A stretch of 64,000 nt of DNA from Bdellovibrionales bacterium (lineage in GTDB: Bacteria > Bdellovibrionota > UBA1018 > CAIMNF01): NCBI GenBank assembly GCA_018266375.1, contig JAFEAO010000006.1:222930-286929 (forward strand), written 5' to 3'. The notes under the pieces were generated by a model. That model was not told where the DNA came from. It did no database searches and saw nothing but the letters and a program-made list of their open reading frames with translations. Within the stretch, counting starts at the first letter, position 1. Each line of letters opens with the position of its first letter. The translations under genes and the position numbers were made by a program. Positions 43,601-60,599 of this stretch are shown here, one piece after another.

Positions 43601-44266
43601 ATGAAAATGGAAAATCTCTACGTTTTGCTGGGATTAGCGATGATCTCCAGCTGTGCACCTTCTTCGAAAAACACCCGCGTTGTAAAGCCGGATGCTCCGG
43701 AAAAAGCGCCAGAAATCCCGACAAAGGCCTATCCTGAGCGGGCTAAGTTTGAGGTGGAATGTAAGTACGGGGAGCAATCTTTTTCGATTGATTTCGAGTC
43801 CAAAAGCGGGGATCTCAAAAACAAGGATATGAGCGTGATCGCGAAGTTCAAAAGCGACGACGCTGACACCGAAGTTCCGCTCAAACTCGCACCCGCAACC
43901 TATCGCGCGGTCGATACGAGCGGACTGAAAAGCATCTGCGATGGCGTGCCAGCGTTTCAAATCGAAAATACCCCGCAATTCCTGTTCGTTTTTAACGTCG
44001 ATCAAAGGCCGCAGTTCCCGGAAACTTCTCTCGTGCTACTCGACGTCGCGAAAAAACGCGTGGTCAACAAGCTCGAGCACATCGGCCAACTGAAAACCAC
44101 AGATGTTCCGAAATATCAAATTATTCCAGCTCAAAACGGCTTTCAAATGCGCCTGATCCGTAACCTCGACAAAAAAACCGAGGACTGGAAATGGATTATT
44201 GTTAAAAAAGGAATGCTCACCGCTAAGTGGATGAGTGGCGGAGGCAGGAAGTCAAAAGCGTATTAA
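43601..44266 (+). CDS. Lipoprotein, hypothetical
   Basis: Lipobox LGLAMISSC. No recognisable domain. Confidence 0.5.
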   Translation: MKMENLYVLLGLAMISSCAPSSKNTRVVKPDAPEKAPEIPTKAYPERAKFEVECKYGEQSFSIDFESKSGDLKNKDMSVIAKFKSDDADTEVPLKLAPATYRAVDTSGLKSICDGVPAFQIENTPQFLFVFNVDQRPQFPETSLVLLDVAKKRVVNKLEHIGQLKTTDVPKYQIIPAQNGFQMRLIRNLDKKTEDWKWIIVKKGMLTAKWMSGGGRKSKAY

Positions 44267-45245
44267 ACGCTTCAAACGGCGGCGCTTCGAAACACATTTC
44301 TTTACCCGTAATCGGATGCTTGAAGCCTAAAACACGGGCGTGAAGCGCTTGACCCGGCAGTTCCTCGATCGCGGCTTGAACCAATTTCGGAAGATTTTTC
44401 CACTTGGGTTGACTACTCGCCGGCGTGCCGTAAACCGGGTCGCCCATGATCGAATAACCAAGGTGATTTAAGTGCACGCGCACTTGGTGCGTACGGCCGG
44501 TTTCGAGCGCGGCCTCGATCAACGAACCGAACGGCGTCTTGCTTGGAACCGCAAACTCGCGCTCGAGTTCGAAGTGTGAGATCGCCTCGCGTCCGTCGGT
44601 GACGTTGACGGACATTTTTTTGCGATCGCTCGGGCTGCGGCCGATCAAGGTTTTTACCGTCTGGCGTTCGTGCCAGCGAGGCGAACCATAGCAAATTGCC
44701 CAATATTTACGTCGAATATCGTGTTTTGCAAAGAGTTTGGAGAGCCCGAGGTGGGCCTCGTCGTGTTTTGAAATCACGAGTGCGCCACTCGTGTCTTTAT
44801 CGATGCGATGGACGATGCCGGGGCGGAGTTTGCCGCCGATACCGGAAAGATCCTTGATGTGGTAAAGAAGCGCGTTCACGAGGGTGTGCTCTTTTTGCGT
44901 TTCGCTCGGATGTACCGTGAGTCCAGGTGGTTTATTGACGACGACGAGGTGCTCGTCTTCATACAAAAGCGGTACCGGAATATTTTCGGGTTTGAGTTCG
45001 ATCCCGACCGGATCCGGGAGAAAGACCTCAATCATCGCGCCCGTTGCAACCGGGTCCTTGGCGCGGATCGGACGTGAGTCGATGAGGATCCCACCGTTTT
45101 CGATCAAACGCTGGACTTGCGAGCGCGAAAGATGATCCAAACCTTCTTGTTCGCTAAACAGAGCGGTCAGGTAGCGGTCGGCGCGAAGGCCGAAATCAAC
45201 GTCCTGACTCGACAGATCTGCGGTAAGCGCGAACTTCTTGGGCAC
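44223..45245 (-). CDS. rluD: RluA/RluD-family 23S rRNA pseudouridine synthase
   Basis: S4 domain N-terminus and catalytic HRIDKDTSGALV motif. Confidence 0.85.
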   Translation of the reverse strand: MPKKFALTADLSSQDVDFGLRADRYLTALFSEQEGLDHLSRSQVQRLIENGGILIDSRPIRAKDPVATGAMIEVFLPDPVGIELKPENIPVPLLYEDEHLVVVNKPPGLTVHPSETQKEHTLVNALLYHIKDLSGIGGKLRPGIVHRIDKDTSGALVISKHDEAHLGLSKLFAKHDIRRKYWAICYGSPRWHERQTVKTLIGRSPSDRKKMSVNVTDGREAISHFELEREFAVPSKTPFGSLIEAALETGRTHQVRVHLNHLGYSIMGDPVYGTPASSQPKWKNLPKLVQAAIEELPGQALHARVLGFKHPITGKEMCFEAPPFEAFNTLLTSCLRHSST

Positions 45246-45345
45246 ACTTGCTTTTACCTCAATGAAATTGATTTAAAAAGTGGACAATGTAGTATATTGT
45301 TGACTAATTTAGTATTGTATTATATTTTATTGCTGGTATAAAAGC

Positions 45346-46137
45346 ATGGAATTTCGACAGCTCATTGGATTGCTATCATTACTTGCATCATTAACGGTTC
45401 ACGCCGGTAACATAGATTACTGCATTAAAAGTTATACCAATCAGATGGAGCTTCTCGATTCGAGTGAGCAAATTCTAAGGGCGATTGAAGAGAGTGAGAG
45501 CTCAACACTACATGAGTTAGGACTCCACTTAAGGCAGGGTTTGCATTTTGCAGAATCCGAAGTATCACAAAAGTATCGAAGTACATATGAATGGGAACTT
45601 GGCAGTGCTTTCGTCAACGCCCGTGACCTCGTCAAACTTCAGAGAACCGGCGCCTCTGAGCGCGAACTTGAAGAGTTTTTGAATCTCTTTAGAACCGATA
45701 TTTATAAGAACATGGAAGCTTATCGGCAGAAGCCGGTGGCCGCGTTCGATAACGACGATCCTCGGATGCCAGCTGCAACGTTTTATAGGATTGACGGGCT
45801 TGAAACGTCCCAGATGCCTATTTTTACAGCCTGTAAGCTTGAGGGATTTCAAAGGTGGCTCGGAGGACTAGGTAAAACCGAAGTATTGGCTGTGAATCAC
45901 AGACTCCGAGTGATTGCCGAGCGAGCTCATTTGGGTACGACGAGATCAGTGACGACCGGAAAGTCTGTAGGTCTCCATGAGATTAAAATTGACGTCGGCC
46001 CAGGTTTAAGAATCTACTACATACAAAGAAACAACTCGTTCGTGATCATGTTTTACGGCGACAAAGGCTCACAAGATTCTGATATCCGCAAAGCGGTGAT
46101 TAACGCATCCGCGTTTCTTGCCATGCAGTCTCAGTAA
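45346..46137 (+). CDS. Protein with a C-terminal Gp49/HigB-like (RelE/ParE superfamily) toxin domain and a signal-peptide-like N-terminus
   Basis: The C-terminal about 105 aa (GLHEIKIDVGPGLRIYYIQRNNSFVIMFYGDKGSQDSDIRKA) match the Gp49/HigB addiction-module killer pattern. The N-terminus MEFRQLIGLLSLLASLTVHA is hydrophobic. An internal Met at 45814 would give a 107-aa standalone toxin. Confidence 0.5.
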   Translation: MEFRQLIGLLSLLASLTVHAGNIDYCIKSYTNQMELLDSSEQILRAIEESESSTLHELGLHLRQGLHFAESEVSQKYRSTYEWELGSAFVNARDLVKLQRTGASERELEEFLNLFRTDIYKNMEAYRQKPVAAFDNDDPRMPAATFYRIDGLETSQMPIFTACKLEGFQRWLGGLGKTEVLAVNHRLRVIAERAHLGTTRSVTTGKSVGLHEIKIDVGPGLRIYYIQRNNSFVIMFYGDKGSQDSDIRKAVINASAFLAMQSQ

Positions 46138-46138
46138 C

Positions 46139-46750
46139 TTAAGCTTTATCCGGACTGCCGGCTTTCATGCGGATGATGTACTTCGAGATCATCTGATCGT
46201 TCGGGAGTTTCAAGCGCTTCGCGATTTGCTGTAAGAAGCCGCGGCAGTACACGACCGCCGGGAGTTTTTTGTAGTCTTCGTCCTCGATCGCTTGGAGGTA
46301 AGCTTTCGAGATACGGGTGAAATCAGCCAAGTCCTCGAGCGTGATCTTGCGCGCTTCACGAATCCGGCGAATCGCGGAACCGCTCCAGTCTTGCTCGCTC
46401 TCGACCAGAAGTTCGACGTCCGATGAATCGTTCGATATTGACGACACGGTCGACGAGTAAGTCGGCATCGGAGTAGTGTATGCTCTGCCTTGATGAGTGA
46501 GACCTTGTGATGAATCGTAAGTCTTGCGCTTTTCAGGGTTCGAGAGAGTAAGGTAAGCATTTTCGATGCGCTGGAGCATCTGATCCGTTTCTTCGCGAGA
46601 GAAGAGGGTGTAGTGAGCGATGCTTTCCTTGTTGTACGCCGATTTCAGGCGCAGGTAGGCCGAGCGGATTTCTTGCGGGGTCGCATCCGGTGTCAGTTCA
46701 AGGGTGTCGTAAAGGCTAGATGGATCGTCATTCAAGTTCACTGCTAACAA
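46139..46750 (-). CDS. J-domain protein with a C-terminal RodZ-like HTH (HTH_25)
   Basis: N-terminal J domain (YDTLELTPDATPQEIRSAYLRLKSAYNKES...KRKTYD, HPD replaced by NKE). C-terminal XRE/RodZ-type HTH (ITLEDLADFTRISKAYLQAIEDEDYKKLPAVVYCRGFL). Confidence 0.6.
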   Translation of the reverse strand: MLAVNLNDDPSSLYDTLELTPDATPQEIRSAYLRLKSAYNKESIAHYTLFSREETDQMLQRIENAYLTLSNPEKRKTYDSSQGLTHQGRAYTTPMPTYSSTVSSISNDSSDVELLVESEQDWSGSAIRRIREARKITLEDLADFTRISKAYLQAIEDEDYKKLPAVVYCRGFLQQIAKRLKLPNDQMISKYIIRMKAGSPDKA

Positions 46751-46762
46751 AATTTTATCGAA

Positions 46763-47794
46763 TTACTCGTTCAACGTCTGTTCAATTCTCGCATGTTTAA
46801 GCAGATAATTGCAGATGCGATCCACATGCGTGGCAATCCGCGATTGAGGATGCTCTGCCAAGAACGGGCGCATTTTGCGAACCGACTGCCAAACATTTGG
46901 CTCATATTCAAGATAACCCAGGTAGTCGAGATCGATTCCGAAGTATTTTTTTGCGACGCTCTTCATCGAAAAGCCGACGTCAATGTCGGTTTGCGAGCGA
47001 GTTTGGTTCAAAACGAGCTTCGGTTTGAAGTCCTTTATTGAACGCTTGAGCTCGCCAGCGAGCTCGGGATTCTGGAAATTTACTTCGTTTAAGAGGTCCG
47101 AGGGCGATTGAATGCCGAGTTGGTTGTTCGGGATCATTGCCGCTTCAATCATTGGCTGAATGGATTCAAAGCGAGAATTCGAGTGGAGGCGGTGATAGTA
47201 AACCGCTTTCAAGAATCGATAGGCGTTTTCAATCGAGGTGGGTTCCGGAAGTACGGTTACGATACCGACTTGAGCGATATTGAAAAAGTCGAGAGTGTAC
47301 TGGCTGGTGCCGGCGCCGAGATCGAGAATGATAAACTGAGCCGGAAGACCCCGGATCTGATTGATCAGCATTTTCTTTTTTTCTTCGGTGATTTGAGTGA
47401 TTTTCAAATCGTCTTTAGCTCCGCCGATCATTTTAAGATTTGGATACTGAGTGTCAACGATGCATTCGACGAGATCGACTACGTTGCCGCTCAGGAAATC
47501 GGAGACGCACTTTTTAGGGGGAGTCTGTCCGAGAACGGTGTGGAGATTTGCGCCTCCCAAGTCCAGATCGATCGCGATCGTTGTGAACCCGTGTTTTGCT
47601 AGATCAAACGCGAGCGATGAGGAGACCAAAGATTTGCCAACGCCGCCTTTTCCGCCCCCAATTGCCCAAATTTGTTTTTGAAACTGATGTCCCCGATATT
47701 GCGAGTGCAAAGATGCCCAAATCCCTTTATTTTCCGACGTGTTGGTGTTTGTTTCCATCCTAGAAACCCCTATATAAATAGCGTAAGTTAGCAT
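46763..47794 (-). CDS. MinD/ParA/FlhG-family P-loop ATPase
   Basis: Deviant Walker A IGGGKGGVGKS, Walker B ILDLGAG. Confidence 0.7.
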   Translation of the reverse strand: MLTYAIYIGVSRMETNTNTSENKGIWASLHSQYRGHQFQKQIWAIGGGKGGVGKSLVSSSLAFDLAKHGFTTIAIDLDLGGANLHTVLGQTPPKKCVSDFLSGNVVDLVECIVDTQYPNLKMIGGAKDDLKITQITEEKKKMLINQIRGLPAQFIILDLGAGTSQYTLDFFNIAQVGIVTVLPEPTSIENAYRFLKAVYYHRLHSNSRFESIQPMIEAAMIPNNQLGIQSPSDLLNEVNFQNPELAGELKRSIKDFKPKLVLNQTRSQTDIDVGFSMKSVAKKYFGIDLDYLGYLEYEPNVWQSVRKMRPFLAEHPQSRIATHVDRICNYLLKHARIEQTLNE

Positions 47795-60522: not shown

Positions 60523-60599
60523 TGGCGTACCCGGTAGGAGTCGAACCTACGACCTACAGCTTCGGAAGCTGCCACTCTATCCAGCTGAGCTACGGGTAC
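60523..60599 (-). tRNA. tRNA-Arg (anticodon CCG)
   Basis: Manual fold of the reverse complement. Acceptor GTACCCG/CGGGTAC, D-arm GCTC...GAGT, anticodon stem GCAGC/GCTGT with loop TTCCGAA (anticodon CCG), T-arm GTAGG-TTCGACT-CCTAC, discriminator G and an encoded CCA. 77 nt. Confidence 0.85.

Follow-up and report, generated by a model that had tools for sequence, protein, structure and literature searches.

A RelE-fold toxin domain behind a predicted signal peptide, with no adjacent antitoxin, in a Bdellovibrionales genome

Introduction

RelE/HigB toxins are understood as intracellular poisons with a co-encoded antitoxin. What, then, is to be made of a gene that places such a domain behind a secretion-signal-like N-terminus and that has no antitoxin gene beside it? 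The gene in question is a 263-amino acid (aa) open reading frame (ORF) with an ATG start at 45346..46137 (+) of a 64,000-nucleotide stretch of DNA, hereafter the window, from a Bdellovibrionales bacterium (GenBank assembly GCA_018266375.1, contig JAFEAO010000006.1, positions 222,930 to 286,929). A preliminary description, made from the sequence alone, had left a choice between an orphan toxin whose true start is an internal Met at 45814 and a novel fusion that delivers a RelE-fold domain outside the cell. The reading we favour, at what we consider an even chance, is that the gene encodes an RNase of the RelE fold that is exported by Sec, has no antitoxin and may serve as an effector against other cells; the export, the cleavage site, the activity and the target are all inferred. 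If this is true, the family to which the protein belongs would represent a second solution to the danger that such a toxin poses, which is never to have it folded in the cytoplasm.

Results

The C-terminal domain is a divergent member of the Gp49/HigB toxins

The ORF is present as earlier described, its translation contains the motifs then quoted (LHEIKIDVGPGLRIYY and VIMFYGDKGSQDSDIRKA), and the same 263-aa product is predicted by an independent gene caller and entered at NCBI as a hypothetical protein of a 'Bdellovibrionales bacterium' metagenome-assembled genome. Residues 164–251 match the NCBIfam family TIGR02683 (RelE/ParE family toxin, upstrm_HI1419) with an E-value of 2.5e-14 and a score of 53.4 bits, which falls below the curated cutoff of 62.85 bits, and residues 162–254 match PHROG 3445, annotated 'toxin' (E 1.5e-12). 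The suggested membership of TIGR02683 is supported by E-value and falls short by curated score, while that of PF05973 (Gp49) was not upheld for the window protein: a Pfam scan of the full protein and of its 107-aa C-terminal fragment gave no match, and PF05973 is absent at E≤1 for the full protein. The same Pfam model is sub-threshold for three relatives of the window protein described below (P0004, P0005 and P0003, with 23.4, 20.3 and 18.7 bits against a cutoff of 23.9) and above threshold for P0006, the closest stand-alone homologue. TIGR02683 is matched at E≤1e-3 by the window protein and all six of its full-length relatives. An exhaustive phmmer search of 1.84 billion representative proteins returned 246 matches at E≤1e-3 and, among the matches listed, most are stand-alone toxins of ~100 aa aligned to residues ~164–251. 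PADLOC gave no match for the window protein.

Four residues (W171, G220, R222 and Q243) do not vary among 64 fused and stand-alone homologues and a further nine (L175, E212, G218, Y224, G238, K240, D246, I247 and A250) are at least 90% conserved; the window protein keeps them all. It also carries the residue pattern of the subfamily (E-x-[KR], G-P-G-x-R-x-Y and G-x-K-x-x-Q-x-x-D-I), with a basic residue at position 214. As far as can be judged from the alignment, the conserved face of the domain shows no sign of decay, and the retained residues would argue for an RNase or ribosome-binding face that is still active.

An AlphaFold model of the protein (mean predicted local distance difference test (pLDDT) 88.5; predicted template modelling score (pTM) 0.58) has a pLDDT mostly above 90 over residues 161–263. 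Residues 159–262 are arranged as strand-helix-helix-four strands-helix, the topology of the RelE/BECR fold, and Foldseek comparison with the PDB retrieved Proteus vulgaris HigB, YafQ, HP0894, YoeB, Mycobacterium tuberculosis HigB1, Cami1 and Vibrio cholerae HigB2 with probabilities of 0.8–1.0 and target-normalised template modelling scores of 0.5–0.7, every E-value being above 0.01. Searched by sequence against the PDB, the single protein gave no match, and the family profile gave only a weak match to M. tuberculosis HigB1 (E 0.02). This alignment pairs E212, K214 and R222 with HigB1 residues E66, R68 and R77, and puts K240 in the beta4-alpha3 loop which holds K95, Q98 and K99; these HigB1 residues are assigned to the proposed catalytic pocket (PMC9098466). 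The toxin domain has an extra N-terminal strand carrying a motif of the family, G-A-x-Y/F (here AATFYRI). Residues 141–160 are modelled with a pLDDT of ~90 when the toxin domain is present and of ~45–54 without it, and they were therefore assigned to the toxin domain as this extra strand. The C-terminal domain does belong to the Gp49/HigB branch of the RelE/ParE superfamily, as the preliminary description had recognised, and is a divergent member of it.

The upstream 156 codons are part of the gene

The region between the ATG at 45346 and Met157 is coding and not an artefact. We scored codon usage as log-odds trained on the long ORFs of the window, for which the mean of a typical gene is +0.33. 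Frame 0 is the best of the six frames in both halves of the ORF, scoring +0.06 in the N-terminal half compared with −0.29 to −0.76 in the five others. Both halves lie equally below the mean for window genes, and the GC content of the gene is 0.46 overall and 0.47 at third codon positions (GC3) against 0.52 and 0.61 for the window; with equally low codon scores and this GC3 difference, both halves therefore appear to belong to a single gene of foreign origin. In a MAFFT alignment with six relatives, the residues at the position of Met157 are L, T, L, R, V and K. No clear Shine-Dalgarno sequence was seen by inspection before either 45346 or 45814. The proposal of an orphan toxin starting at the internal Met is disfavoured, since the upstream codons are conserved as protein, Met157 is not conserved, frame 0 scores best and a promoter-like element lies 5' of 45346.

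Features of the gene and its surroundings, in window coordinates
Feature	Position	Strand	Basis or remark
Segment of ~0.9 kb and low GC (promoter region and ORF) between rluD and the dnaJ/HTH_25 gene	45246..46138	.	absent from close relatives
Promoter-like TTGACT-17-TATTTT, 18 nt upstream of the ATG	45300..45328	+	promoter scan
Predicted Sec-type signal peptide, residues 1–20 (MEFRQ, LIGLLSLLASLTV, HA), cleavage after VHA	45346..45405	+	rule-based
Cys26, invariant in 7/7 family members, a few residues past the predicted cleavage site	45421..45423	+	alignment
N-terminal helical domain, residues ~40–127	45463..45726	+	core three-helix bundle (helices 53–71, 75–100 and 105–127)
Low-confidence linker, residues 128–140	45727..45765	+	mean pLDDT 57 for residues 131–140; length and sequence variable in the family
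RelE/HigB-fold (Gp49-type) domain, residues ~141–263	45766..46134	+	TIGR02683, PHROG, AlphaFold, Foldseek
Internal Met157, alternative start of the preliminary description	45814..45816	+	where stand-alone toxins start
Convergent DnaJ and HTH_25 (RodZ-like) gene, not part of the feature	46139..46750	−	Pfam, synteny

A predicted signal peptide precedes a helical bundle

The secretion-signal-like N-terminus noticed earlier was confirmed when judged by simple rules (hydrophobicity and the −3/−1 residues) rather than by a trained predictor. A short n-region (MEFRQ) is followed by an h-region of 13 residues with a mean Kyte-Doolittle value of 2.46 and by a c-region with V and A at −3 and −1 and G after the predicted cut. 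Equivalent hydrophobic cores (mean Kyte-Doolittle 2.2–2.9), followed by small −3/−1 residues, are found in all six relatives, and neither they nor the window protein have a second hydrophobic segment. In all seven proteins the N-terminal flank of the core is basic or neutral and the stretch that follows is acidic, consistent with an N-in/C-out orientation; these charges would therefore leave most of the protein outside the cytoplasm, with or without cleavage of the peptide. Export is a prediction that holds consistently across the family.

A twin-arginine-like motif occurs only in P0004 (SARRIFF, in the N-terminus MVSARRIFFTL; L008:4876-5688). Other members have a single Arg at a similar position (NRFF, SRIL, FRQL). 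Two further Cys residues lie near the equivalent of Cys26 in three relatives, and possible roles for Cys26 include a disulfide-linked dimer or an attachment site. A lipoprotein reading of this residue was rejected, there being no lipobox before the Cys in any member. The N-terminal domain is, on the evidence of the model, a generic three-helix bundle and not a helix-turn-helix (HTH) antitoxin.

The architecture is shared by a small family

Six full-length relatives (P0002, P0003, P0004, P0005, P0007 and P0008; 263–293 aa) were found, each 20–31% identical to the window protein in the MAFFT alignment and with a best match that falls within its residues ~11–262. All have the same order of elements, in which a hydrophobic N-terminus is followed by the equivalent of Cys26, a helical region with a W-E-L motif, a variable linker, a G-A-x-Y/F-L/F motif and the toxin domain. 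Where stand-alone toxins have N-x-G-D, the fused family has a motif of its own, H195-x-G197-D. As regards the fusion outside the cell that had been offered as the other possibility, its architecture is borne out by the six relatives, each with a signal-like N-terminus, a helical domain and a TIGR02683-matching toxin domain, while the location outside the cell is still a prediction.

The family is rare, amounting to seven clusters at 50% identity, with one or two members each at the 90% level, among ~15 billion proteins. The patterns tried found no further members among 185,579 species-representative genomes, in IMG/VR or in JGI metagenome contigs. A word-indexed homologue search returned the window protein only, and the family alignment as query added only P0007. 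The N-domain is always paired with the same type of toxin domain in these seven clusters, a small sample, so that the varied toxin domains of polymorphic toxins are not seen. No description of the family was found in the literature searched or in a 2025 survey of multidomain RelE/ParE toxins.

Promoter geometry points to the signal-peptide start

The promoter-like element listed in the table is weak evidence when taken alone, since the 2-kb region holds no more such sites than chance would give. At six of the seven family loci, TTGAC (TTTGA in L006) lies 39–46 nt upstream of the ATG and is followed at a fixed offset by a TATGATA-like block. At three loci the TTGAC is the left arm of a perfect palindrome, TTGAC-N7-GTCAA, 40–41 nt upstream of the ATG (L004:2750-2766 and L005:1231-1247, L008:4836-4852, L009:5960-5976); the TATGATA-like block that follows it there is also present in L002 and L006. 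Among the ten loci compared, the exact palindrome occurs only upstream of the family gene. The window copy (45300-45326) retains the left arm only (TTGACtaatttaGTATT), and occurrences of the palindrome elsewhere in the window are at chance level. A shared regulator may use the palindrome as its operator, which would overlap the −35 element. Judged by its position, the conserved promoter geometry would tie transcription to the signal-peptide ATG, with a leader that would be short.

No antitoxin or immunity gene accompanies the family

No antitoxin gene follows the ORF and the next gene is convergent, as the preliminary description had stated. It also rightly saw an XRE-like, RodZ-type HTH in this neighbour, which matches DnaJ (E 6e-10), HTH_25 (E 8e-20) and HTH_19 (E 1.3e-7) in Pfam and whose stop codon is 1 nt from that of the family gene. 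A partnership between the two is not supported, given at least 139 homologue clusters of the HTH protein, a conserved gene row that lacks the family gene in close relatives and no HTH neighbour at other family loci. On the other side, beyond a 100-bp AT-rich gap, lies a divergent gene for an RluD-type pseudouridine synthase (44223..45245, −).

The adjacent, co-transcribed antitoxin of a type II toxin-antitoxin system is lacking at the window locus and at the six others, none of which has an HTH or antitoxin neighbour, and Pfam found neither in the adjacent proteins of unassigned function at family loci. Nor is there the immunity gene that polymorphic toxins carry immediately downstream, no downstream gene being conserved in the seven loci; what the protein does have in common with polymorphic toxins is an N-terminal trafficking element, in the form of the predicted signal peptide, joined to a C-terminal toxin domain. 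The neighbours differ at all seven loci (RluD and DnaJ-HTH; Trypsin_2 and a glycosyltransferase; an unknown protein and a radical-SAM/SPASM protein; an unknown protein and LigB; and others), and a tblastn comparison of all window ORFs with the homologue loci showed no common gene besides the family gene. A shared downstream partner was also ruled out for the two loci L009 and L010, whose same-strand downstream proteins are unrelated to each other; downstream of the gene in L008 are only unremarkable small ORFs.

At four loci the gene upstream of the family gene is divergent and the one downstream is convergent, its end lying 1–14 nt away (window 46135-46141, L004:3624-3628, L006:6882-6889, L002:8867-8882). 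Such spacing leaves no room for a terminator and the 3' ends of the two transcripts must therefore overlap. Protease genes adjoin the family gene in two lineages only, L002/L003 and L010 (L010:2698-6004; L002:6786-7862; L003:454-1530). In L002/L003 the divergent neighbour is a Trypsin_2 gene; in L010 a Trypsin_2 gene and a gene for a 749-aa protein with weak zinc-metallopeptidase matches precede the family gene, the latter overlapping its GTG start by 4 nt. These neighbours could recall protease-activated secreted toxins, or could be a coincidence. Rfam gave nothing near the locus, its sole match in the window at the gathering threshold being a tRNA gene (60526-60599, −).

The gene occupies a segment missing from close relatives

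The clusters of homologues of the DnaJ and HTH_25 protein are 46–84% identical to it and several are labelled Bdellovibrionales. On contigs with copies of 80%, 76% and 59% identity, the gene order is parA-like, dnaJ/HTH and rluD, then Lon either directly or after a few genes. There no gene separates dnaJ/HTH from rluD, and the two either overlap by 1 nt or leave a gap of 16 nt (L011/L012, a JGI contig and L013); the 1-nt overlap is that of the closest relative (window 44223-47794 compared with L011:3987-6625 and L013:4018-6705). In DNA alignments the segment given in the table has no counterpart and sits exactly between the dnaJ/HTH stop and the rluD start, and rluD is full length in both of the genomes compared. 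A search for terminal or flanking repeats around the segment found only short, chance-level matches and no hint of a transposon. On the simplest reading, the extra segment would be an insertion, in which a gene entered a conserved row of housekeeping genes together with its own promoter region.

Within the AT-rich part of the segment, a minus-strand promoter-like site (TTTATA-17-TACAAT, 45342-45314) could now drive rluD. Farther along, the space between lon and rluD holds an ORF of 221 aa (43601-44266, +), which has a lipoprotein-like start (MKMENLYVLLGLAMISSC) and overlaps the 3' end of rluD by 44 nt. The corresponding slot has no gene in the closest relative (L011) and a 217-aa gene in the corresponding orientation in another; it looks like a second variable slot of the neighbourhood.

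Discussion

How the protein could work without an antitoxin

The preferred reading can be put as a sequence of steps. Translation would start at the 45346 ATG and yield a pre-protein composed of a Sec-type signal peptide (1–20), a Cys-bearing segment, a three-helix bundle (~40–127), a flexible linker and the Gp49/HigB-type domain (~141–263). This would be threaded unfolded through Sec, such that the toxin domain folds only outside the cytoplasm, and we propose that no antitoxin or immunity gene is therefore needed. Once outside, the domain would act as an RNase or translation inhibitor on prey or competitor cells, with the helical domain serving delivery, binding or latency. Gp49-family toxins are described as ribosome-dependent mRNases (PMC11980606), and a useful target would therefore have to lie in the cytoplasm of some other cell; given the Bdellovibrionales label, prey are attractive as that target. 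The fuller version of the idea is more tentative, and we think it less likely than not: a ribosome-dependent mRNase of the HigB/Gp49 type has been turned into a Sec-exported, immunity-free effector, released by a Bdellovibrio-like predator or by other rare bacteria of the environment to stop translation in prey or competitors, export replacing the antitoxin and the bundle providing delivery or latency.

Several observations weigh against export of an active toxin. The signal peptide is called by simple rules only, with a weakly charged n-region, and the SARRIFF motif of P0004, if it is a twin-arginine translocation (Tat) signal, would imply export of a folded protein, which misfits the idea that export replaces the antitoxin. 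No partner for secretion, processing or delivery is conserved, protease neighbours being confined to two lineages, and the HMM scores lie under curated cutoffs (53.4 against 62.85 bits for TIGR02683, with nothing in Pfam). RelE-type toxins need translating ribosomes, which are absent outside cells, and there is no evident route of entry into a target cell. The Bdellovibrionales label is that of the window, one of the seven family loci. The pTM of the AlphaFold model is low, and the N-domain may contact the toxin domain and inhibit it in cis.

Alternative explanations

The rival with the greatest weight, which we still regard as rather unlikely, is that the protein is exported and no longer a toxin, its RelE fold having taken on a binding or structural role beyond the cytoplasm (with nucleic acid or components of the envelope as possible partners). 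With no toxicity, no antitoxin would be needed, which fits the lack of antitoxin and immunity genes at seven loci as well as the absence of ribosomes outside the cytoplasm, the sub-cutoff HMM scores and the family's own motifs such as H195-x-G197-D; moreover, some bona fide HigB paralogues are non-toxic (M. tuberculosis HigB2 and HigB3; PMC9098466). Against such re-use, every residue that is at least 90% conserved in stand-alone toxins is retained, and E212, the basic residue 214, R222, K240 and Q243 are kept in seven proteins of only 20–31% identity, which suggests that selection has acted on the active-site face and not just on the fold. Next in weight, and improbable, is a cytoplasmic or membrane-tethered single-chain toxin-antitoxin, in which the N-domain neutralises the toxin in cis, the hydrophobic N-terminus is an anchor or irrelevant, and release comes by proteolysis or failed export. 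Fused toxin-antitoxin genes do exist in the RelE/ParE superfamily, including 69 gp49-HTH fusions (PMC11980606), the N-domain always co-occurs with the toxin domain, and three loci have a palindrome lying across the promoter, an arrangement also seen in autoregulated toxin-antitoxin operons. The N-domain, however, has no HTH, other DNA-binding or antitoxin signature, and the order of domains is opposite to that of the gp49-HTH fusions, in which the toxin comes first. In addition, the 13-residue hydrophobic core of the window copy is short for a membrane anchor, the flanking charges of every member point to a protein that lies mostly outside the cytoplasm, and the linker is predicted to be flexible.

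Two further rivals carry far less weight. That this is an ordinary orphan Gp49/HigB toxin starting at Met157 (45814), the upstream codons being a chance frame or mis-annotation, is very improbable even though this Met lies where stand-alone toxins begin and the toxin domain alone explains all database matches of the window protein: the upstream region is conserved as protein in six relatives, none of which has a Met there, it is best read in frame 0 and models as a confident helical bundle, a promoter-like element stands before the first ATG and no Shine-Dalgarno sequence before 45814, and the gene caller chose the long product. Least credible of all is that the convergent DnaJ and HTH_25 protein serves as an antitoxin in trans. 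It does contain an XRE-like HTH, and the two stop codons are separated by a single nucleotide, but its homologue clusters are numerous, its gene is convergent and not co-transcribed, and it has no equivalent at the six other family loci. Furthermore, the parA-like, dnaJ-HTH, rluD row is uninterrupted and toxin-free in relatives with 59–80% identical copies, and the HTH neighbour is therefore most unlikely to be the antitoxin.

Comparison with known systems

The closest relatives in sequence family and RelE-type fold are the Gp49/HigB type II toxins (PF05973, TIGR02683), among them M. tuberculosis HigB1 (HigB-TAC, Rv1955) and V. cholerae HigB2. The counterparts of HigB-TAC E66, R68 and R77 and of a Lys in the beta4-alpha3 loop are retained here. 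Unlike these toxins, the window protein has ~140 extra N-terminal residues (the signal-like peptide and helical bundle) and is predicted to leave the cytoplasm; it is also monocistronic, lacks a downstream HTH antitoxin of the HI1420 type and scores under the curated cutoffs.

A C-terminal RelE-fold RNase behind an N-terminal export signal is also the layout of Tox-RelE in polymorphic toxin systems, for which Zhang et al. (2012) tabulate type II secretion, RHS repeats, a HINT peptidase and Imm54, with a single instance of classical RelE, from Paenibacillus elgii (PMC3482391). The window protein differs in being small and in having no repeats, no releasing peptidase, no immunity gene and an N-domain that always accompanies the same type of toxin. 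The diffusible S8-PTS/ABP (AbpT) toxins of Gram-positive bacteria consist of a signal peptide, a middle domain and a C-terminal toxin, often a BECR-fold RNase, and are secreted and enter other cells; these toxins rely on an S8 protease and come with immunity proteins (PMC9424270; PMC12582261). Their layout is alike, and two lineages of our family have adjoining protease genes (Trypsin_2 in L002/L003, Trypsin_2 and a weakly metallopeptidase-like gene in L010), whereas the window locus has none; the family also has a three-helix bundle in place of BetaH, no conserved S8 protease, no immunity gene and, for the window, a Gram-negative host lineage.

Colicins E5 and D are diffusible bacteriocins whose cytotoxic domain belongs to the BECR superfold (PMC3482391). 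Their likeness to the window protein is one of fold class, with no sequence relationship beyond it. These colicins, too, have a helical region upstream of the nuclease domain; they are not known to have a signal peptide, have dedicated immunity proteins and are tRNA anticodon nucleases.

The survey of multidomain RelE/ParE proteins by Gerdes (2025) covers fused toxin-antitoxin genes, including the gp49-HTH set, PtuZ and ToxM; in ToxM a BECR domain at the cytoplasmic N-terminus is followed by a transmembrane segment, and the antitoxin, ToxR, is encoded upstream (PMC11980606). The window protein resembles ToxM/ToxR and the gp49-HTH fusions as a multidomain protein with a RelE/ParE-superfamily domain; the gp49-HTH fusions differ in carrying a C-terminal HTH. 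The survey does not mention signal peptides or secretion and leaves out multidomain proteins with no identifiable antitoxin (PMC11980606), and the class to which the window protein belongs was therefore not examined there. None of the systems compared, whether the Gerdes set, Tox-RelE or S8-PTS/ABP, matches the window layout. Should the preferred reading be right, the mature protein, at ~240 aa, would add a compact candidate to the antibacterial RNases that are secreted, from a lineage that bears the label of predatory Bdellovibrionales; should the domain be inactive, the case would document re-use of a toxin fold outside the cytoplasm.

A second, unrelated architecture was found in P0062 (L014:4001-4756, L015:103-858), where a Pro/Lys-rich linker joins a signal-like N-terminus to a Gp49 domain that scores above the PF05973 cutoff (28.2 bits). 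Its gene is solo, with a convergent patatin-like neighbour and no antitoxin, which suggests, at the level of predicted architecture, that export-type fusions of the Gp49 toxin arose more than once. A Gp49-like domain is also embedded in P0069 (990 aa, with a PcfJ-like region), where it is followed by a C-terminal extension of ~120 aa that is common to P0029 (295 aa).

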